Origin: Patescibacteria group bacterium
Lineage (GTDB): Bacteria; Patescibacteriota; Kazan-3B-28; UBA10110
Direction: 5' to 3'
Length of the DNA stretch: 64,000 nt
Assembly: GCA_041659905.1 (NCBI GenBank)
Contig: JBAZXK010000002.1
Coordinates: 30,723 to 94,722, forward strand
Positions 14,770 to 60,672 of this stretch are shown in pieces. The position numbers were made by a program, and so were the translations under genes. Numbering within the stretch: the stretch's first letter is position 1; the number at the start of each line of letters is the position of its first letter. The notes under the pieces are model-generated. The model searched no databases, was not told where the DNA came from, and worked only from the letters and a program-made list of their open reading frames with translations.

Positions 14770-14992
14770 TGGCCCTCCTTTTTCATGAATTTGAGGTCAA
14801 AGATCATGCAGAACTACTTCTGCTTAACCCAAACTTACCTCATTAAACAGAATTAGTCCATATGACGGTCTCTACAGGCACAAATGAGACAATGGCAAGG
14901 GGATATGAAAATATCTCATATATGGCCTAATAATCAGTCTAATAGTCAAATCAACCAAGATAGGCACCTCGGTCATTTGATTCGTTTTTATT

Positions 14993-15275
14993 TGGCTCCG
15001 GGGGAGGGATTCGAACCCACGACCAATTGATTACACAAATCCATAATTTTCATTATGGCGTGGACTATATCTTTACCATGCCTCATTTGGAGAGGTTTAG
15101 GCATCTCGGTATCTAGTCTCTACGGCGCCCTCAATTTTAAATTGAGGTTCCCACGGTGTTAACATATCTCACGACTTAGTCTTCACCGTTATCCCAAGAT
15201 GTTCACTTTGGCGTTTCCACCAAAGGCTGCGTTTTATGATCACAGTCAACTGCTCTACCGCTGAGCTACCCCGGA
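14993..15275 (-). tRNA. tRNA-Asn (anticodon GUU) interrupted by a 208-nt group I intron
   Basis: The 5' exon is 15275..15242 (UCCGGGGUAGCUCAGCGGUAGAGCAGUUGACUGU). The 3' exon is 15033..14993 (UAAUCAAUUGGUCGUGGGUUCGAAUCCCUCCCCCGGAGCCA). Joined, they give a 75-nt cloverleaf with anticodon loop CUGUUAA, a U1:A72 pair and a G73 discriminator, as in bacterial tRNA-Asn. Confidence 0.8.
15034..15241 (-). ncRNA. group I self-splicing intron (ORF-less) in tRNA-Asn anticodon loop
   Basis: The 5' exon ends in U, which can pair as U.G with a GCAG guide sequence about 12 nt into the intron. There is a P2 hairpin CUUUGG...CCAAAG. GUAGAGACUAGA and AAGAUAUAGUCC elements are present, and the intron ends in G. 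Confidence 0.75.
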
Positions 15276-21831: not shown

Positions 21832-21919
21832 TGGCGGAGAGGGCGGGATTTGAACCCGCGATACCTTGCGGTATGCCCGCTTTCCAAGCGAGTGCACTAG
21901 GCCACTATGCGACCTCTCC
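21832..21919 (-). tRNA. tRNA-Ser (anticodon GGA)
   Basis: Cloverleaf with anticodon loop UUGGAAA, a long variable arm, a G73 discriminator and encoded CCA. Confidence 0.85.
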
Positions 21920-22017
21920 ACTAAACGCCTCTCGGCGCAATTAACCAATTGCCAATTTAACCAATGTGCACCAATATAACACCAATTACCTTATTATTGT
22001 AGCAGGAGTTAGTATAC

Positions 22018-22241
22018 GATTCTGGAGTCGCTTTGTAAGCTCCCCAGAATGACGCCCAAGCCAGCCATTGGAGGAGGGATGTTCTGAATTGAGCCAAATC
22101 CTTGGCGCGGGGAGATGTTTGAGGCCGATGTGCTATCGGCCGAGTTTCGACCTAAAGCGGTAAGAGGATTTGGCCAATGAATAATCCCGACGAACGAGCT
22201 GGGACTTTGGTGTTACCTTTCTAGAAAGGTAACAGAAAAAA
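22018..22241. repeat. ~220-bp intergenic element, copy A
   Basis: Begins TTCTGGAGTC...CCATTGGAGGAGGGATGT. Ends GACTTTGGTGTTACCTTTCTAGAAAGGTAACAGAAAAAA. Homologous in order and ends to 58130..58337. Confidence 0.5.
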
Positions 22242-22244
22242 TGA

Positions 22245-22320
22245 TTTCTGGAGATCCTGAAACAAGTTCAGGATGACGGGAAGAAAAAGGCCTAGATTCC
22301 GGATCAAGTCCGGAATGACA
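22245..22320. repeat. cluster of hairpin-TGACR miniature repeats
   Basis: CTGGAGATCCTGAAacaagTTCAGGATGACGG and TTCCGGAtcaagTCCGGAATGACA. These are short hairpins each followed by (A/G)TGAC(A/G). Confidence 0.45.
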
Positions 22321-22345
22321 AAAAATCATAGGAAACTACATAGGG

Positions 22346-22374
22346 TTGACGGGAAGGGCAAAATGCCCTACACT
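22346..22374 (+). promoter_or_regulatory. putative sigma-70 promoter for rpsF-ssb-rpsR
   Basis: TTGACG, 17 bp spacer, TACACT. It lies about 80 bp upstream of the rpsF start. Confidence 0.35.
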
Positions 22375-22455
22375 CGGATTACTTTATAACTTAACCTTTT
22401 CTCCCCTTCGACCATGCTCAGGGGGATTCCCCATGGGAAAGGAAATTTTTTGCTT

Positions 22456-23085
22456 ATGGAAGAAAATAATGTCTATGAATTAGCTGTGGTTATCTCCCCT
22501 GACCTATCAGAGTTCGATGTCCAAAAGATTGTCGACAAGGTCAAAATCTCTATTGCCTCTAAGGGAGGTTCGGCTCAACAGGAACATACTTGGGGGAAAA
22601 AGCGCTTGGCTTATCCCATCGGTAAAGCCGAGTTTGGGTATTATCAGACCTTGATTTTCGACTCCCCTAAAGAGGCTATTGCCGAAATCGATAAAGATAT
22701 TAGACTAACCCCGGAAATCATTCGGCATTTGATTATCTCATTGGAAAAAGAAGGAATCACGGCAGAGCAATTATTTACACCTGAGAAAGAAGCGGTTTTG
22801 ATCGCGACGATAGCCAAAGAAAAAATGGAACCGAGCCGGCCACATCAGACTAGAGCGAGTAGAGGCAGGATAACGCCGGCGATAGTTGCGGATATTCCAG
22901 GAACCAAAGATTCTGGAGTCGCCCCAGAGGAAAGCTCCCCTGCCTACCGGCAGGCAGGCCAGAATGATGACATAAAAGAGGTGGTAGATATTGCTGAGCC
23001 TGTGGTAGAAGAGACTGCCGATGAAGCGGCCAAGCGGAGAGAAGAATTAGATAAGAAATTAGACGAATTATTAAAAGAAGAATAG
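22456..23085 (+). CDS. rpsF: 30S ribosomal protein S6 with long acidic C-terminal extension
   Basis: YELAVVISPDL...WGKKRLAYPI...GYY S6 core. The Met at 22456 is preceded by a GGGAAAGGAAA ribosome-binding site. The ORF-track start at 22414 is probably too early. Confidence 0.85.
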   Translation: MEENNVYELAVVISPDLSEFDVQKIVDKVKISIASKGGSAQQEHTWGKKRLAYPIGKAEFGYYQTLIFDSPKEAIAEIDKDIRLTPEIIRHLIISLEKEGITAEQLFTPEKEAVLIATIAKEKMEPSRPHQTRASRGRITPAIVADIPGTKDSGVAPEESSPAYRQAGQNDDIKEVVDIAEPVVEETADEAAKRREELDKKLDELLKEE

Positions 23086-23100
23086 AGATTCCTCGACAAG

Positions 23101-23155
23101 CTCGGAATGACACTCTTTCTGTCATCCTGAGCGGAGTCCTTTCTGGACGGAGTCG
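23101..23155. repeat. hairpin-TGACR miniature repeat between rpsF and ssb
   Basis: CTCGGAATGACActctttcTGTCATCCTGAGCGGAGTCCtttctGGACGGAGTC. Confidence 0.45.
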
Positions 23156-23197
23156 AAGGATCTGAAACAAAAGTTATAGTGAATAACTTTTAAGGAA

Positions 23198-23710
23198 ATG
23201 CGTGATCTAAATAAAGTAATGCTGATTGGTAATGTCGTCCGCGATCCGGAAATCCGGACCATTCCGTCCGGACAAAGCGTGGCGGCTATTTCGATCGCCA
23301 CCAATAGAAGCTGGAACGATAATGCCGGTGAACTCCAGAAAGCGGTGGAATATACCGATATTGTAGCTTGGGGCAAACTGGCGGAAATCGCCGGACAAAT
23401 CCTCAAAAAAGGCCGCAGAATGTATGTGGAAGGTAGATTGCAAACCCGGAACTGGGAAGGCCAAGATGGTGTCAAAAGATATAAGACCGAGGTAATCGCG
23501 AGCGACTTAATCGTTTTAGATAAACCGCAAGGAATTAACATGAACGGCACTACTGAAGCTACAACTATGCCAGAAATAACCACTCCAGCAACAGTTATGC
23601 CAGCAGCTGAATCCCCGGTAGAACCAGCTGGATCAGTGCCTCAGCCGATGGCAGTGGGCGCCACCGCCGCTCCCGCCGAGGAAATTGATATCGAAGATAT
23701 ACCGTTTTAA
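23198..23710 (+). CDS. ssb: single-stranded DNA-binding protein
   Basis: OB-fold SSB core and C-terminal acidic tail ending in DIPF. Confidence 0.9.
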   Translation: MRDLNKVMLIGNVVRDPEIRTIPSGQSVAAISIATNRSWNDNAGELQKAVEYTDIVAWGKLAEIAGQILKKGRRMYVEGRLQTRNWEGQDGVKRYKTEVIASDLIVLDKPQGINMNGTTEATTMPEITTPATVMPAAESPVEPAGSVPQPMAVGATAAPAEEIDIEDIPF

Positions 23711-23790
23711 AAAATTACTGTTCGAGGCAGATGCCGAGAACTATAGTTCTCACTTCGTTCGAACAATAAATTAAATAATAATTAATAAAT

Positions 23791-24051
23791 ATGGCTTTTA
23801 AATCATTCAAGAAAAAACCAGCAACTTTCCCCCGCTACACTACGACAGTCAAAAAATATTGTCATTTTTGTCATGAAAAGATCGATTATATCGATTATAA
23901 AAATGTCAAAACTCTATCCAAATATTTGTCGCGGTATATGAAGATTGAACCGCGTCGCCGGAGCGGCAATTGTGCCAAGCATCAACGCATGGTGGCAACA
24001 GCCCTAAAACGGGCCCGGCATCTGGCTTTAATGCCTTACACCATCCACTAA
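23791..24051 (+). CDS. rpsR: 30S ribosomal protein S18
   Basis: Conserved S18 motif [34 protein letters not shown]. Canonical rpsF-ssb-rpsR gene order. Confidence 0.9.
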
Positions 24052-24055
24052 ATCA

Positions 24056-24613
24056 ATGTTAGACATCACTGATCTTAAAACTGGTGTCATTATCGAATTA
24101 GAAGGCGCCCCTATGGAAGTAGTGCGGTATCAGCACACTAAAATGGGCCGGGGCGGTGCAATTTTACGCACAACTCTAAAAAACTTACTGACTGGCGCTA
24201 ATGTCGAACGGACATTCAGGAGTGAAAAGTTCAACGAAGCCGATATCACTCGCAGTAAAGCCCAATATCTTTATAAAGACGGTGGGAACTTTACTTTTAT
24301 GGACAGCATCACCTTTGAGCAGTTTAACCTGAGCCAAGACGTAATTGGTCATAATGCCAATTATCTAGCAGAAGGCCGGGAAGTGGAATTGGTTTATTTT
24401 AACGGTAACCCAATTAGCATCCAATTGCCGCTGAAAATGAAATTTAAAATTATTCAGGCCGATCCAGCCGTTAAGGGCGACACTGTCACTAATCCTTCTA
24501 AAAACGCTACCCTGGAAACGGGTATGCATATCAAAGTACCTATGTTTGTGAAAGAGGGTGATACGATTTTAGTAGATACCCGCGATGGCAGCTACATCGA
24601 ACGGGTTAATTGA
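24056..24613 (+). CDS. efp: elongation factor P
   Basis: EF-P KOW/OB architecture. Loop sequence is KMGRGGAILR, with Arg at the modification position. Confidence 0.9.
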   Translation: MLDITDLKTGVIIELEGAPMEVVRYQHTKMGRGGAILRTTLKNLLTGANVERTFRSEKFNEADITRSKAQYLYKDGGNFTFMDSITFEQFNLSQDVIGHNANYLAEGREVELVYFNGNPISIQLPLKMKFKIIQADPAVKGDTVTNPSKNATLETGMHIKVPMFVKEGDTILVDTRDGSYIERVN

Positions 24614-24691
24614 CGACATATTCCTTGTGTCGTCATCCCTGCCTACCGGTAGGCAGGCTCGCCTCGTCGGGGATCGTATAAATTAATATAA

Positions 24692-24725
24692 GATTCTGGA
24701 CGCACTTCGTTTGCCAGAATGACGG
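24692..24725. repeat. hairpin-TGACR miniature repeat upstream of ychF
   Basis: GATTCTGGacgcacttcgtttgCCAGAATGACGG. Confidence 0.45.
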
Positions 24726-24739
24726 ATAAAAAATAAGTT

Positions 24740-25831
24740 ATGGGATTATCAATCGGTATTGTCGGGTTACCCAATGTTGGAAAATCGACGCTGTTTAACG
24801 CCTTGATGGGCAAGGCCCAGGCGGCAGCGAGCAATTTTCCGTTTTGTACGATTGAACCTAATGTCGGTACCGTGCCTGTTCCCGATTCCCGACTAGACGT
24901 ACTGGCCAAATTAGAAAATTCTGAAAAAAGCGTTCCCACGGCCGTAGAATTTGTGGATATTGCCGGATTAGTCAAAGGTGCCAGTGAAGGTCAGGGCCTG
25001 GGCAATCAATTTTTGGGCCATGTCCGAGAATGCGACGCCATTATTGAAGTGGTGCGCCTATTTAATGACACCAATGTGATTCATGTCAGCGGTGCCGTAG
25101 ACCCTAAAGAAGACATCTCGACTATCAATACGGAACTTCTGATCGCGGATATGCAGGCTCTGGAAAAACGCGTTGGGCGAGAAACCAAAGAAGCTAAAAC
25201 CGATATTAAACTACAGCCCCGAGTAGAATTTTTGCGTAAGATCAAATCACATATCGATGCGGGACAACCGGCGAGAACTTTTGCGGCCAATGATGAAGAA
25301 AAAATTTGGCTCCGAGAACTCTGCTTACTCACTAGTAAACCAATTTTATATGTGGCTAATGTGGACGAAGAACAACTAAAACAACCGGACTTAATCGAAA
25401 AACTCAAACAGCAGGTTGAGGATGTTTTCCCCGAAATTATTGCCCTTAATGCTAAAGCCGAGTCCGAACTTTCGCAGATGTGCATGGAAGATCAGGATTT
25501 ATTACTGAAAGAATTGGGTATGGACGAACCCGGATTAAACAAAGTCATTCGCGCTGGCTATAAATTACTTAATTTAATTACCTTTTTTACGGCTGGACCC
25601 AAAGAGGCCCGAGCCTGGACGATCCGCTTGGGCGCCAAAGCGCCCCAGGCCGCCGGGGTAATTCATACCGATTTTGAAAAAGGCTTCATCCGGGCCGAAA
25701 CTATCAGCTACGCTGACTTTGTCCAGTACGGTGGCTGGAAGGGCGCTGGCGAGGCTGGAAAAGCCCGCCAAGAAGGCAAAGAATACATCGTCCAAGATGG
25801 CGATGTCATGCTCTTCCGATTCAATGTCTAA
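24740..25831 (+). CDS. ychF: ribosome-binding ATPase YchF (OLA1 family GTPase-like)
   Basis: GIVGLPNVGKSTLFNAL G1 motif and a C-terminal TGS domain. Confidence 0.9.
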   Translation: MGLSIGIVGLPNVGKSTLFNALMGKAQAAASNFPFCTIEPNVGTVPVPDSRLDVLAKLENSEKSVPTAVEFVDIAGLVKGASEGQGLGNQFLGHVRECDAIIEVVRLFNDTNVIHVSGAVDPKEDISTINTELLIADMQALEKRVGRETKEAKTDIKLQPRVEFLRKIKSHIDAGQPARTFAANDEEKIWLRELCLLTSKPILYVANVDEEQLKQPDLIEKLKQQVEDVFPEIIALNAKAESELSQMCMEDQDLLLKELGMDEPGLNKVIRAGYKLLNLITFFTAGPKEARAWTIRLGAKAPQAAGVIHTDFEKGFIRAETISYADFVQYGGWKGAGEAGKARQEGKEYIVQDGDVMLFRFNV

Positions 25832-45322: not shown

Positions 45323-45430
45323 TACTGGAGATCCTGAATCATAATTAGATCCTTCGACTCCGGAACGTCTGACGTTCCTCCGCTCAGGATGACAAAGCAA
45401 GGAAGACTTTGTCAGTTCAGGATGACGGAG
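45323..45430. repeat. cluster of hairpin-TGACR miniature repeats upstream of MBL gene
   Basis: TACTGGAGATCCTGAATC...CTCAGGATGACAaagcaaggaagactttGTCAGTTCAGGATGACGG. Shares the CTGGAGATCCTGAA segment with 22249. Confidence 0.45.
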
Positions 45431-57489: not shown

Positions 57490-57792
57490 CTACAGATTAA
57501 TCAAAGAATATCTAATTATTTGTTTTAGTGACGATTTACCTTTATCTGTCTTAAAGTATCTTTCACGTCTTATGGCATCTCTCTTATCTTTGAAAGCTTC
57601 ATAAAATATAAGTTTAAACGGTCGGCGATCTTTTGTTGATCTCACTAAACCCTTTTGGTGTTCCTGAAACCGTTTCTGCAAATCAGTAGAATAACCAATA
57701 TACAATTTATTATCTTTCTGGCTTTTTAATACGTATGTGTAATACATAAAATTACAGGCGTCCATAAACCACTCGGGTTTATGGCTCGCCAT
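57490..57792 (-). CDS. GIY-YIG nuclease domain protein (UPF0213/YhbQ-like)
   Basis: YYTYVL...KLYIGYSTDLQKRFQEH GIY-YIG core. 100 aa. Wedged 3 nt after one tRNA-Ser and 17 nt before another. Confidence 0.75.
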   Translation of the reverse strand: MASHKPEWFMDACNFMYYTYVLKSQKDNKLYIGYSTDLQKRFQEHQKGLVRSTKDRRPFKLIFYEAFKDKRDAIRRERYFKTDKGKSSLKQIIRYSLINL

Positions 57793-58129: not shown

Positions 58130-58337
58130 TTCTTGGAGTCCAGAGCCGCCATTGAAGGAGGGATGTATTTTTTGTCTGCAACCCGGGCATTGGAGTTTGA
58201 GCGTTACGGTTCAATAAAATTGGCGCTGTGAAGCCGGTTATACCGGCGAGAACGGAAAGCCATATTTTATTAGAACCGCAGCAAAAACGACTGTCCGGAG
58301 ACTTTGGTTACTTTCCTTGGGAAAGTAACAGAAAAAA
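58130..58337. repeat. ~210-bp intergenic element, copy B
   Basis: Begins TTCTTGGAGTC...CCATTGAAGGAGGGATGT. Ends GACTTTGGTTACTTTCCTTGGGAAAGTAACAGAAAAAA. A plus-strand hairpin with T-run follows at 58346..58386. Confidence 0.5.
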
Positions 58338-58341
58338 GTCC

Positions 58342-60672
58342 TCAAAAGCCCACTTGGATAAAATCTTGGTAAGTGGCTTTTTTAGCTAATTCTTTCTCTG
58401 GGTCAATCACCCCAATTTCCCCGACTAAGGCATCCCACAATTCTAGCAACTCTCCGGCGATGGGTGTTTGATAGATCTCTCCCCCATTATCAGCAGTAAA
58501 AATAAATTCTGCTGGCGTAGTCACTCCCAGATCGGCGATATTGTAAATAAAATTAACTCCCATCTTGCTGAACACGCCATTATCAAGAGGAGCACGGCTA
58601 AAATGATCGTCGTAATCATTATGAATACCATCTCTCATGGTGTCATCAAAACCCACCCCCCCTACTCCCACAGAAGTAATGCCAGAAGGAAAGATATCCA
58701 ACCGATCCAGCCCATTATCCAGATCGTCCTCGGGCGAATAGGTAATAATTTGCTTAACTACCATATCCTTATCAAAAAGCCGAGACTCTCCTCGTAAAGC
58801 TATTTTAGTCGGCATATCTAACAGCTCTTTGATGACTAAACGAATTTTATTCCGAGCCTCATAAGCTTTTAACATTTCTAAATTTCCTCCGGCAGCGATA
58901 GATTTATTCCAACCCACCATATTGGCAACCTGAGTAGCTTTATACGCTTGGCCAATACCAAGTCGTAAATTATTCAGAGCCTCAGGCGTGCCTAAGGCTT
59001 CGACCAGGGCTGTTATTTGGCTATTGCTTAAAGTGCTGGGATCCAGGCCAATTTCATTTTGGAGATTCGAAAAAACATTATTGGCTTGGGATAGATAATC
59101 TTGAGTACGGTCATCTAGTTTAGTTATAGCGGCAGCCCGATCTAATAAATTTTTAACTCGGTTGATAAATTGAAAATACTGCACAAAGAACAGCTTATTG
59201 AGAGGGGCATTCTGCAAGGCTGCCACAATTTGATCATGATTTTTATCAGTCAAGAAAACCCGGTAGTCAGCCATGGTGGTGTCCAACCAACCCGCCACAT
59301 AACCCAATTCTTCCCAAAGCGGCCGGACCTCAGCTTCGGCCAGAGTTCTTTGCCAACTAATTTCGATAGGTTGTCCCGACATCTCTGGAATTTGACTGCG
59401 ATCTACTGCCACAATCGCCAGGGCTTGTCCTTCAGAAAAAGCGGTGAAGGCTCCCAGTTCCTCTGTACTCTCTTCTCCGTCGCTACTATAGGCAGCTAAA
59501 CTTTTAACTAATTTGTAGCGCGATTGGCGCGGAGAGTTAGTTTTAATCAAACCGATCTTTAAATAATCATGGAGATCAGACAAGTACGAGATGGTACGCA
59601 ATAGTCGGTAATCCAAGGTGTGCGTACACGGCCCGCTGGTACCGCAGTTCCATTGGTTTAAATCTCCTATACCTGAACTATAAATCACCAAACTGCCGTT
59701 GGTCACTTTTTCTTGGAGACTATGGATAAACTCATTATTAACTGCCATCATATTACCTTCACTGTCTCGTGTGACTTCGCTGGCCGGAGCTACTAGTTCA
59801 GTTTTAACCGAACCACCCGCCTCGCTCATATTGCCATTGCGTCCACAGGTGAATATGCCGATGATAATGACAAATATCAGTATGATGATCAAAATTACCC
59901 AGCCGACCGGATTAGATACCAAAAATACCACTGCCTCCGTGATAGCATGAATAGCCACCTGGGCAGCCTGTACGGCTGCTTGGTAAACCGCTTGCGCCGC
60001 TTGGGCCGCAGCTTGTGCCATTCTAATACTCACCTCAATGGCTTTTTGGGCAACTTGCACTGTTCTTTGAGCAACTTGCACTGTTCTTTGGGCAACTTGC
60101 ACTGTTCTTTGGGCAATTTGCACTGCTCTTTTGGCCGCCTCTGCTGCTTCGCGAATTTTTTGCGGCGTTTCGATAATTCTTTTGGCTGTTTCCGCAGCTT
60201 CCTTCACTTTGTTAGCAGTCTGCCCCGCTAACCGCTGGGTTTTTTGCAGAGGGCTTTCGGCCGGTTGATTTTGTTGATCAGATGAATTATTTTGTGAAGA
60301 ACCACCCATCCGGCCAGCTGCACCGCGCGCCAACTGCCCAGCACCACGCAAACCTTGTTTGCCCAAATTAGCCGCTTTCCCTTTCCAACCTCCCGCTCCC
60401 CCCACTTTCGGAGTACTAGCTGGACGTTTTCCGGCAGTAGCTAATTTATTAGGCTGAGTTGACCGATCTGCTGGTTTTTCTTGTTGTCGAGTTTGATGTT
60501 TTTTCTCTTTAGTAGGCGAGGTGCGTCTTGGTTCCCGCGACGATTGCCTCGCAGGTTCTTCGGCGGTTGGTTCCGTTTCAGCCTCTTCTGATACAGGTTG
60601 GTCCTCTTCTGGGTTCAGATTTTCCTCTAACGGTTCTTGGTCGAGATCTTCATTGGTATCCTGATCAACCAT
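58342..60672 (-). CDS. large single-pass membrane protein with cytoplasmic acidic/basic low-complexity and heptad-repeat region, and ~480-aa extracytoplasmic domain
   Basis: 776 aa. AQRTVQV heptads encoded by 21-bp tandem repeats. TM helix VVFLVSNPVGWVILIIILIFVIIIGIF. Ends 4 nt from the PEGA gene. Confidence 0.6.
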   Translation of the reverse strand: MVDQDTNEDLDQEPLEENLNPEEDQPVSEEAETEPTAEEPARQSSREPRRTSPTKEKKHQTRQQEKPADRSTQPNKLATAGKRPASTPKVGGAGGWKGKAANLGKQGLRGAGQLARGAAGRMGGSSQNNSSDQQNQPAESPLQKTQRLAGQTANKVKEAAETAKRIIETPQKIREAAEAAKRAVQIAQRTVQVAQRTVQVAQRTVQVAQKAIEVSIRMAQAAAQAAQAVYQAAVQAAQVAIHAITEAVVFLVSNPVGWVILIIILIFVIIIGIFTCGRNGNMSEAGGSVKTELVAPASEVTRDSEGNMMAVNNEFIHSLQEKVTNGSLVIYSSGIGDLNQWNCGTSGPCTHTLDYRLLRTISYLSDLHDYLKIGLIKTNSPRQSRYKLVKSLAAYSSDGEESTEELGAFTAFSEGQALAIVAVDRSQIPEMSGQPIEISWQRTLAEAEVRPLWEELGYVAGWLDTTMADYRVFLTDKNHDQIVAALQNAPLNKLFFVQYFQFINRVKNLLDRAAAITKLDDRTQDYLSQANNVFSNLQNEIGLDPSTLSNSQITALVEALGTPEALNNLRLGIGQAYKATQVANMVGWNKSIAAGGNLEMLKAYEARNKIRLVIKELLDMPTKIALRGESRLFDKDMVVKQIITYSPEDDLDNGLDRLDIFPSGITSVGVGGVGFDDTMRDGIHNDYDDHFSRAPLDNGVFSKMGVNFIYNIADLGVTTPAEFIFTADNGGEIYQTPIAGELLELWDALVGEIGVIDPEKELAKKATYQDFIQVGF
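60049..60132. repeat. 4 x 21-bp tandem repeat (GGGCAACTTGCACTGTTCTTT) inside CDS
   Basis: Four near-identical direct 21-mers. They encode (AQRTVQV)x4 in the 58342..60672 protein. Confidence 0.8.

Follow-up and report, generated by a model that had tools for sequence, protein, structure and literature searches.

What are the short hairpins that fill the spacers of the rpsF-ssb-rpsR-efp-ychF gene string in a Patescibacteria group bacterium, and on which strand do they act? The genes lie in a stretch of 64,000 nucleotides of contig JBAZXK010000002.1 (GenBank assembly GCA_041659905.1, positions 30,723 to 94,722 of the forward strand), hereafter the window. A preliminary description had noticed hairpins here that are followed by ATGACR or TGACR, and had offered repetitive extragenic palindromic (REP)-like, transcription-factor and termination-attenuation elements as readings, with the TGACR tail likened to a -35 half-site. 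Our analysis indicates that the units are members of the CGTC/TGTC-tagged REP superfamily (with dRS3/NTS, the Rickettsia palindromic elements RPE-4/-6 and the Ssn-related motifs, SRMs), strand-specific DNA hairpins that here probably spread nonautonomously. We regard the family assignment as well supported and infer the mechanism in this genome. The host group, Patescibacteria, and the variant subtypes are new, and the CGTC-REP/Ssn-related hairpin family itself is known. The REP-like nature was thus sensed correctly at the outset, on the wrong strand.

Enrichment and Anatomy of the Units

The repeat family lies where it was first seen and is far above chance. The sequence YYRGRATGACR occurs 10 times on both strands of the window, versus 0.8 +/- 0.9 (maximum 4) in 200 dinucleotide shuffles. 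A structural detector, which needs YGTC, an AT-opening stem of at least 7 bp with its first 5 positions paired, and then C, reports 8 units versus 1.0 +/- 0.9 (maximum 3) in 100 shuffles. The original count of at least seven copies was too low, as ten units (c1-c10) are present. They are listed by position, with the strand of the head and the sequence read on that strand.

c1, 22016-22054, minus: CGTC-ATTCTGGGG-(14 nt)-CTCCAGAAT-CGT
c2, 22251-22278, minus: CGTC-ATCCTGAA-CTTGT-TTCAGGAT-CTC(CAG); DNA hairpin of -6.1 kcal/mol, z -3.8
c3, 22293-22320, minus: TGTC-ATTCCGGA-CTTGA-TCCGGAAT-CTA; DNA hairpin of -7.6 kcal/mol, z -4.2; repeat family D9
c9, 22907-22972, minus: 66 nt (22 codons), in frame in rpsF, head shifted by 3 nt (TGTC-ATC-ATTCTGG...)
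c4, 23085-23112, minus: TGTC-ATTCCGAG-CTTGT-CGAGGAAT-CTC; left half of a head-to-head dimer
c5, 23120-23164, plus: TGTC-ATCCT-GA-GCGGAG-[TCC TTTCT GGA]-CGGAGTC-GA-AGGAT-CTG; right half of the dimer
c10, 24631-24677, plus: CGTC-ATCC...GGGGAT-CGT; holds an inserted 20-nt perfect palindrome, CCTGCCTACCGGTAGGCAGG, at 24638-24657
c6, 24690-24724, minus: CGTC-ATTCTGG-(14 nt)-CCAGAAT-CTT; ends 15 nt 5' of the ychF start codon
c8, 45328-45427, minus: CGTC-ATCCTGAA-(84-nt interior)-TTCAGGAT-CTC(CAG); stem and tail are those of c2
c7, 45346-45394, minus: nested in the c8 loop; c5 subtype with the apical stem GAACGT-CAG-ACGTTC

Read on the strand opposite to that of the first description, every unit has the same layout: an unpaired YGTC head, a 5' arm A-T-N5-7, a loop or interior, a 3' arm ending in A-T, and a C that is usually followed by T. 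The head is CGTC in c1, c2, c6, c8 and c10 and TGTC in c3, c4, c5, c7 and c9, so that all ten are YGTC; AT...AT-opening stems and a C directly 3' of the stem are likewise found in ten of ten, the tails being CTC, CTA, CTG, CTT or CGT. What had been described as an ATGACR tail with the look of a -35 half-site is the reverse complement of this conserved YGTC-AT head. Similarly, the sequence common to two clusters, CTGGAGATCCTGAA in c2 and c8, was correctly spotted and corresponds to the unit tail (CTCCAG on the head strand).

The units differ in their interiors. An 8-bp stem with a 5-nt loop is seen in c2, c3 and c4, and 14-nt loops with 7-9-bp stems in c1 and c6; the interiors of c5, c7, c8, c9 and c10 run from 22 to ~84 nt and contain inner hairpins or nested elements. 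Two of these, c5 and c7, share the form ATCCT-GA-GCGGAG-[variable hairpin]-CGGAGTC-GA-AGGAT, in which tandem G.A mismatches are confined to the head strand and the apical stem differs yet is compensated (TCC/GGA versus GAACGT/ACGTTC). Perfect units fold as DNA with z scores of -3 to -4.6, and the c4/c5 dimer folds as a single long hairpin (-15.3 kcal/mol, z -2.4). In c10, the head is additionally paired with TGACGACA at 24611-24618. There is one head-to-head dimer and one unit with a head-only partner in the ~70 kb of this genome that were read, comprising the window and 6.3 kb of contig to its left (locus L252). An ENA contig of 170 kb is 99.985% identical to the window across 20.5 kb. Two independent Logan contigs (L002, L003) start at exactly 22296, within c3, and such breaks hint at variation at this point.

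Eight units (c1, c2, c3, c9, c4, c5, c10 and c6) lie at the rpsF-ychF string, and c8 with the nested c7 lies at 45.3 kb. The genes of the string and its 5' neighbor are as follows.

tRNA-Ser, 21832-21919, minus: 5' neighbor of the ~500-nt spacer before rpsF
rpsF, 22456-23085, plus
ssb, 23198-23710, plus
rpsR, 23791-24051, plus
efp, 24056-24613, plus
ychF, 24740-25831, plus

The units had been described as always 5' of plus-strand genes. This holds insofar as they fill the spacers of a plus-strand string; it is also the case that c4/c5 and c10 start 2-18 nt past the stop codons of rpsF and efp, and that c5 and c10 are inverted. The head strand is the minus strand in 8 of 10 units, and in the window the minus strand is the one rich in G and in genes. 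Exposure as lagging-strand template would fit such a bias, which is only a hint, as the skew also tracks the direction of transcription and the sites are few.

The copy inside rpsF that had been called degenerate (22937-22972) is a complete 66-nt unit, c9, with its head displaced by 3 nt. It contains a nested 20-nt palindrome at 22939-22958, the recurrence of which in the efp-ychF spacer is short of perfect: CCTGCCTACCGGCAGGCAGG in rpsF differs by one base from CCTGCCTACCGGTAGGCAGG at 24638-24657. This palindrome, of the type CCTGCCTRCCGGYAGGCAGG, behaves as an insert of its own, being nested in both c9 and c10. It also interrupts a duplicated tRNA-Met fragment at L252 17514-17533, and recurs in unrelated viral and metagenome contigs (L034, L265, L317).

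Relation to Known Hairpin Families

The CGTC-tagged REP superfamily was defined by Di Nocera, De Gregorio and Rocco (2013, BMC Genomics 14:522; PMC3733652) and takes in Neisseria dRS3 and Rickettsia RPE-4 and RPE-6. In that work, the head is an unpaired CGTC, with TGTC and CCTC as variants, the stems of 8-9 bp almost invariably open with complementary A and T at positions 1 and 2, the loops are 4-5 nt long, and an unpaired 3-nt 3' tail has the consensus CCA. The elements are found mainly as head-to-head dimers, at tens to thousands per genome, with some copies intragenic; they have no associated transposase, and the hosts named are Proteobacteria, Chlorobi, Bacteroidetes, Spirochaetes and Thermotogae (PMC3733652). 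The window units share with them the CGTC/TGTC head, the AT-opening stem, the short 3' tail and the head-to-head arrangement (c4/c5), as well as the 8-bp stems with 5-nt loops (c2, c3, c4), an in-frame intragenic copy (c9) and the lack of an adjacent transposase. They differ in their host, which lies outside the five phyla of that paper, in their tails, where the window has CTN or CGT in place of CCA (CCA is present in the relatives L244 and L249), and in that half of the units have long, nested or G.A-mismatched interiors, which fall beyond the stem and loop sizes given there. Like the Rickettsia palindromic elements, c9 is a palindromic element of 66 nt in frame within a protein-coding gene, in a variable linker; unlike them, it is a single case, its host gene is rpsF of a Patescibacteria bacterium, and its boundaries are blurred by the hypervariability of the linker.

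A second comparison brings in a protein. Chenal et al. (2025, Nat Commun 16:2388; PMC11893778) describe SsnA, a GIY-YIG nuclease of a single domain and ~95 aa, which binds the Neisseria NTS (CGTCATTCCCGCGMAVGCGGGAATCYRG) and cuts it. SsnA acts on single-stranded DNA (ssDNA) only, on one strand only, and does not bind RNA. The three bases 5' of the palindrome (GTC) govern cutting, the C just 3' of it and the stem matter for binding, and the cut falls just 5' of the head (PMC11893778). The motifs flank ssn genes in the manner of a minimal insertion sequence, and ssn is carried by 81% of genomes with >200 motifs (PMC11893778). A GTC head, a palindrome and then C are present in all ten window units. 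The published SRM search sequence matches NTS itself and two units of L249, and the L249 ssb-rpsR spacer contains TGTCATTCCCGCGAAAGCGGGAATCCAG, which matches both the published NTS sequence and the SRM search sequence. This match of a relative's unit to NTS suggests a continuum of sequence types. The REP-like reading of the preliminary description is therefore borne out by anatomy, that of the CGTC-tagged REPs and the NTS/Ssn-related motifs, and by insertion/absence polymorphism at orthologous sites, as described below. An Rfam gathering scan of the window and a scan of 21900-24760 at E<=10 gave no match on the units, and a literature search with unit sequence strings returned unrelated primer matches only.

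Distribution of the Mismatched Subtype

To place c5 and c7, both of which fit it, we used the pattern GTCATCCTGAGCGN{3,30}CGAAGGATC, which specifies 22 bases and by our own estimate is expected ~2 times by chance in 596 Gb. It matches at least 120 IMG/VR viral contigs and at least 120 stretches of a species-representative genome collection, in >15 phyla. Among the matches listed, the hosts are Chloroflexota, Acidobacteriota, Patescibacteria (seven metagenome-assembled genomes), Bacteroidota, Planctomycetota, Verrucomicrobiota, Omnitrophota, Gemmatimonadota, Nitrospirales, Cyanobacteria, Bacillota, Actinomycetota, Alpha-, Gamma- and Deltaproteobacteria, and Bdellovibrionales. The occurrence of this G.A-mismatched ATCCTGAGCG type in so many phyla and in many phage contigs means that the family is far wider than the published search motif.

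Across 313 copies from other genomes, conservation is limited to the head, the stem and two single positions, -1 (T in 82%, C in 15%) and +1 (T in 78%). The conserved flanking positions are exactly the ones critical for Ssn cutting and binding. Stem positions 3-5 are complementary in 175 of the 212 units in which the search did not fix them, versus 57 (maximum 79) with shuffled partners, and nine types of complementary triplet occur. Inverted pairs of units are frequent in the pattern-selected loci and tandem arrays occasional. No filled/empty pairs were found among these loci; it was the orthologous loci of relatives that supplied them. All-against-all clustering of open reading frames (ORFs) of >=90 aa near units in 240 loci showed only phage structural genes and transporters to recur. 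Several IMG/VR contigs are rich in units (L077, 8.98 kb; L074, 14 kb; L057; L059): in L077 an 87-nt dimer is repeated in tandem at least five times, and L074 has eight units on one strand, each inside a longer repeat.

Ssn-Type Genes and the GIY-YIG Protein of the Window

With small GIY-YIG ORFs as tblastn queries, a small GIY-YIG gene was found in 6 of 120 repeat-selected genome loci, and in 5 of those 6 a unit lies <=72 nt from it. In L206 and L230, units stand on both sides of the gene with their heads outward. Sampling from the gene side gives the same picture: in P0134 and P0116, whose protein family has at least 8000 matches, unit dimers lie 13-25 nt upstream of the start codon and further units 40-200 nt downstream. 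Because units flank these genes in both the repeat-first and the gene-first samples, the ATCCTGAGCG-type units, c5 and c7 included, are the hairpins of Ssn-type genes; as with the Ssn system, c5/c7-type units flank Ssn-type genes, in other genomes. The Ssn-type protein has a single match site in an N. gonorrhoeae chromosome filed by PLSDB as a plasmid, where it shows 47% identity over 88 aa to the ssnA orthologue, which lies among 13 NTS copies in 1.67 kb. The PLSDB entry in question (NZ_CP119140.1; L352, 1881578-1883250) is a 2.17-Mb chromosome in which the ssnA orthologue is unannotated. A scan of viral sequences for Ssn-type genes found no relatives. A covariance model built from Ssn-flanking units was dropped, as MAFFT set the NTS type one column off the G.A type and a single consensus structure would be wrong.

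The window itself encodes one candidate partner.

GIY-YIG ORF, 57490-57792, minus: 100-aa single-domain protein, Pfam PF01541, E 2.4e-18

This protein is nearer to UPF0213 (PDB 1zg2, E 1.3e-8 versus 2e-3 for the L230 type) and is without the C-terminal motif K.W.R..K..LIE..N..W.DL. It aligns with 64 of 94 residues (68%) of the gonococcal SsnA orthologue at 33% identity, and the published rule for an ssn gene is >75% of SsnA aligned with E < 1e-10 (PMC11893778). The ORF sits between two tRNA-Ser genes, tRNA-Ser(tga) and tRNA-Ser(gct), and has no unit beside it; no unit lies 200 nt or less from the gene at any of 80 homologous loci, and unit density at those loci is 0.019 per kb versus 0.16 per kb in the window. 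We therefore rejected it as the partner. With no Ssn-type gene in the stretch read, the partner nuclease may be elsewhere in the genome, may have been lost, or may be of another kind.

The UPF0213-like protein has at least two copies here, the second being a 78-aa paralogue (L252 17253-17489, minus strand) that lies ~2 kb left of the window and precedes tRNA-Met, with a duplicated 5' fragment of tRNA-Met upstream of its ORF. A co-oriented tRNA or tmRNA gene stands beside the ORF in ~40 of 51 loci homologous to the UPF0213-like GIY-YIG (loci L253-L332), and at least 14 of these loci have, upstream of the ORF, a repeat of the tRNA-Gln D-arm and then a hairpin. The gene has the look of a tRNA-targeting mobile gene.

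Gain, Loss and Nesting in Relatives

Four relatives keep the rpsF-ssb-rpsR-efp-ychF order. Their RpsF identity to the window and the units at the locus are as follows.

L244: RpsF 74% identical; 5 units in 8.2 kb
L247: RpsF 73% identical; 0 units in 7.8 kb
L249: RpsF 58% identical; 5 units in 12.1 kb
L250: RpsF 49% identical; 2 units in 12.7 kb

Comparison of orthologous spacers, which the preliminary description had proposed, yields counterparts of c1, c6 and c10 in L244 and of c2 in L250, and no unit in L247. The c1 counterpart is in the same place, short-looped and degenerate; that of c2 has the same stem and a 41-nt loop, again in the same place upstream of the rpsF promoter. The rpsF-ssb spacer is 36-39 nt long in L244, L247 and L250, all of which are without the dimer (23085-23164). 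Only in the window does the 76-nt head-to-head dimer c4/c5 lie between the rpsF stop codon and a conserved 'tgaaa..aaaagttata', and L249 has a different dimer there, arranged tail-to-tail. The efp-ychF spacer is 8 nt in L247, without c6, 126 nt in the window (c10 and c6) and 158 nt in L244, in which the c10 orthologue lacks the 20-nt palindrome and an extra unit accompanies an identical c6. The site of c9 is the hypervariable C-terminal linker of S6, which is 8-10 residues shorter in L244 and L247, and these have no unit there. Such presence and absence, together with nesting, are what insertion and loss of elements, at times one within another, would leave behind. With their clean filled and empty sites, these loci lend themselves to work on the spread of the hairpins.

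A separate observation concerns a single relative lineage (L244 2783-3169, L246 6407-6793), the only one in which a 128-aa gene with 23S_rRNA_IVP/bAvd domains is inserted between ssb and rpsR.

Proposed Mode of Action and Points Against It

Taken with the biochemistry of SsnA, the anatomy suggests that the units most likely act as ssDNA hairpins recognized by a small GIY-YIG nuclease and spread as nonautonomous elements. One strand of the unit would be extruded as ssDNA and bound by an Ssn-type nuclease, which would cut just 5' of the YGTC head, the stem and the 3' C serving binding and the GTC serving cutting. The units here would have spread in this way, now or in the past, with a serving nuclease that may be encoded elsewhere in the genome or have since been lost. 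Their placement beside rpsF, ssb and ychF would then reflect available noncoding space, not a promoter role, and any effect on the operon mRNA would be secondary. The outcome is that an unexplained Patescibacteria repeat now has a place in a defined family, one for which the kind of partner protein is known.

Several observations weigh against this account. The published SRM search sequence, HGTCWYN(0-2)YYVSBRHN(0-5)WNVSBRGN(0-2)RNCYNB, matches 0 window units and 0 of 312 ATCCTGAGCG-type units. A tblastn search that covered the window, its 6.3-kb left flank and ~55 kb of the relatives' loci found no Ssn-type gene. The ten units stand in two clusters, and the detector saw none in the other 60-odd kb of the window. 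For the G.A-type units c4, c5 and c7, a nearest-neighbor DNA model does not predict the outer stem (z ~0), the pairing of which is read from covariation. Mobility by an Ssn nuclease is raised only as a hypothesis in the 2025 paper (PMC11893778). Finally, c6 is identical at 35 of 35 positions between the window and L244, and the halves of c10 are without substitution, even as the 4-fold sites of efp and ychF are 46-50% identical. The whole efp-ychF spacer (window 24614-24739, L244 4011-4168) is ~97% identical where aligned, its few changes falling between units, and the two sequences differ mainly by a pair of clean indels, one of 20 nt and one of 51 nt. The identity of c6 and c10 points to constraint, recent exchange of the segment, or conversion between copies. 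Given near-saturated neutral sites, these units do not fit simple decay of selfish DNA, and their identity is a concrete hint of function or of recent DNA exchange.

Alternative Explanations

One rival explanation is that the units are selected cis-acting RNA hairpins of the rpsF-ssb-rpsR-efp-ychF transcript, serving as 3'-end stabilizers, processing sites or translation modulators, roles that have been proposed for many REPs; their likeness to Ssn motifs would then carry no information on their function here. Their positions in operon spacers would suit such roles, with c4/c5 and c10 directly past stop codons and c6 ending 15 nt short of a start codon, as would the ~97% identity of the efp-ychF spacer outside its two indels at 46-50% identity of 4-fold sites; many REPs have also been argued to be transcribed and to act as RNA (PMC3733652). 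Yet the sister lineage L247 has no unit in this operon, the spacers of which measure 8-36 nt there, and units occur in both orientations (c5 and c10 versus the rest). At the viral loci, orientation relative to flanking ORFs is even, with 33 the same and 29 opposite on crude ORF calls, which amounts to no bias. Among the ten window units, eight have the strand with the conserved head and tandem G.A mismatches in antisense orientation to the genes, and SsnA does not bind RNA (PMC11893778). Termination or attenuation, as first suggested, finds no support either, for no unit has a T-run after it. We judge an RNA role of this kind unlikely.

The same identity could be explained if the hairpins were kept by selection in a minimal genome and served by a nuclease other than Ssn, for which the tRNA-linked UPF0213-like GIY-YIG protein is a candidate. 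The protein is at hand in this genome, and its homologous loci are poor in units, as given above; we judge this scenario improbable. Were it true, Patescibacteria would have a new nuclease-hairpin pairing, possibly one that controls recombination or ssDNA processing around the rpsF-ychF genes.

It is quite improbable that the units are REPs or REPINs moved by a RAYT (REP-associated tyrosine transposase, of the IS200/IS605 Y1 type), or remnants of IS200/IS605 ends. The design is indeed shared with the GTAG REPs and REPINs: an unpaired tetranucleotide 5' of a hairpin, clustering, inverted doublets forming a longer hairpin, as the c4/c5 dimer does in REPIN-like fashion, and an inferred action on ssDNA. 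Unlike in those systems, the head is YGTC and not GT[AG]G, and the enzyme superfamily would be GIY-YIG and not HUH-Y1. No RAYT was found: precomputed Pfam matches of called genes show no Y1_Tnp or other transposase from the window start to ~53.4 kb or in the 6.3 kb to the left, no recurrent transposase-like family lies near the units in the 240 loci listed, and no CGTC REP adjoins any RAYT gene (PMC3733652).

The promoter idea fails because the rpsF promoter is a separate site. The only sigma-70-like plus-strand site upstream of rpsF is TTGACG-17-TACACT at 22346-22374, 25 nt past c3, and a homologue of this promoter and its leader is kept in all four relatives, including L247 and L249, in which no unit adjoins it. 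A reading of the TGACR tails as half-sites of a -35 element or an operator, with the hairpins as promoter-associated regulatory sites, is therefore hardly credible: ATGACA does share 5 of 6 bases with TTGACA, and a unit ends 11-25 nt upstream of the rpsF -35 box in the window, L244 and L250, but no tail has a -10 element at 16-18 nt or is among the promoter-like sites, c6 ends too close to the ychF start, at 15 nt, for a promoter to fit between them, c9 lies within coding sequence, and the same tails stand beside unrelated genes in >15 phyla. A transcription-factor element is likewise unlikely, given loops of 3 to >40 nt, nesting, and unrelated neighboring genes in >15 phyla and phage contigs. 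With this, a false promoter lead is removed, and the tagged DNA hairpin remains our preferred reading of the units.

Other Features of the Window

Between c1 and c2 lies a conserved element of ~190-210 nt in plus-strand orientation (window 22050-22250), which recurs at 58135-58345 and in two relatives (L249 5700-5895, L250 5585-5800) and is absent from L244 and L247. Copies share the 5' end GCCRGCCATTGGAGGAGGGATGT and the 3' end CYGGRRCTTTTG, followed by a hairpin, GTTACYTTTCTAGAAARGTAAC, and an A-run; the closing helix CCRGC/GCYGG is apparently covarying, and there is no Rfam match. Both window copies have a tRNA-Ser gene on the opposite strand at a distance of 135-250 nt.

The 776-aa ORF at 58342-60672, for which a look-up of annotation returned no record, contains a 21-nt repeat, TTTGGGCAACTTGCACTGTTC, in four tandem copies at 60045-60128 (family D4). 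On the minus strand, positions 15041-15251 match the group I intron family of Rfam (RF00028, 68.8 bits), directly adjoining a T-arm/acceptor-like tRNA 3' half at 14988-15024 on the same strand; together they look like an intron-split tRNA gene that has no ARAGORN call.

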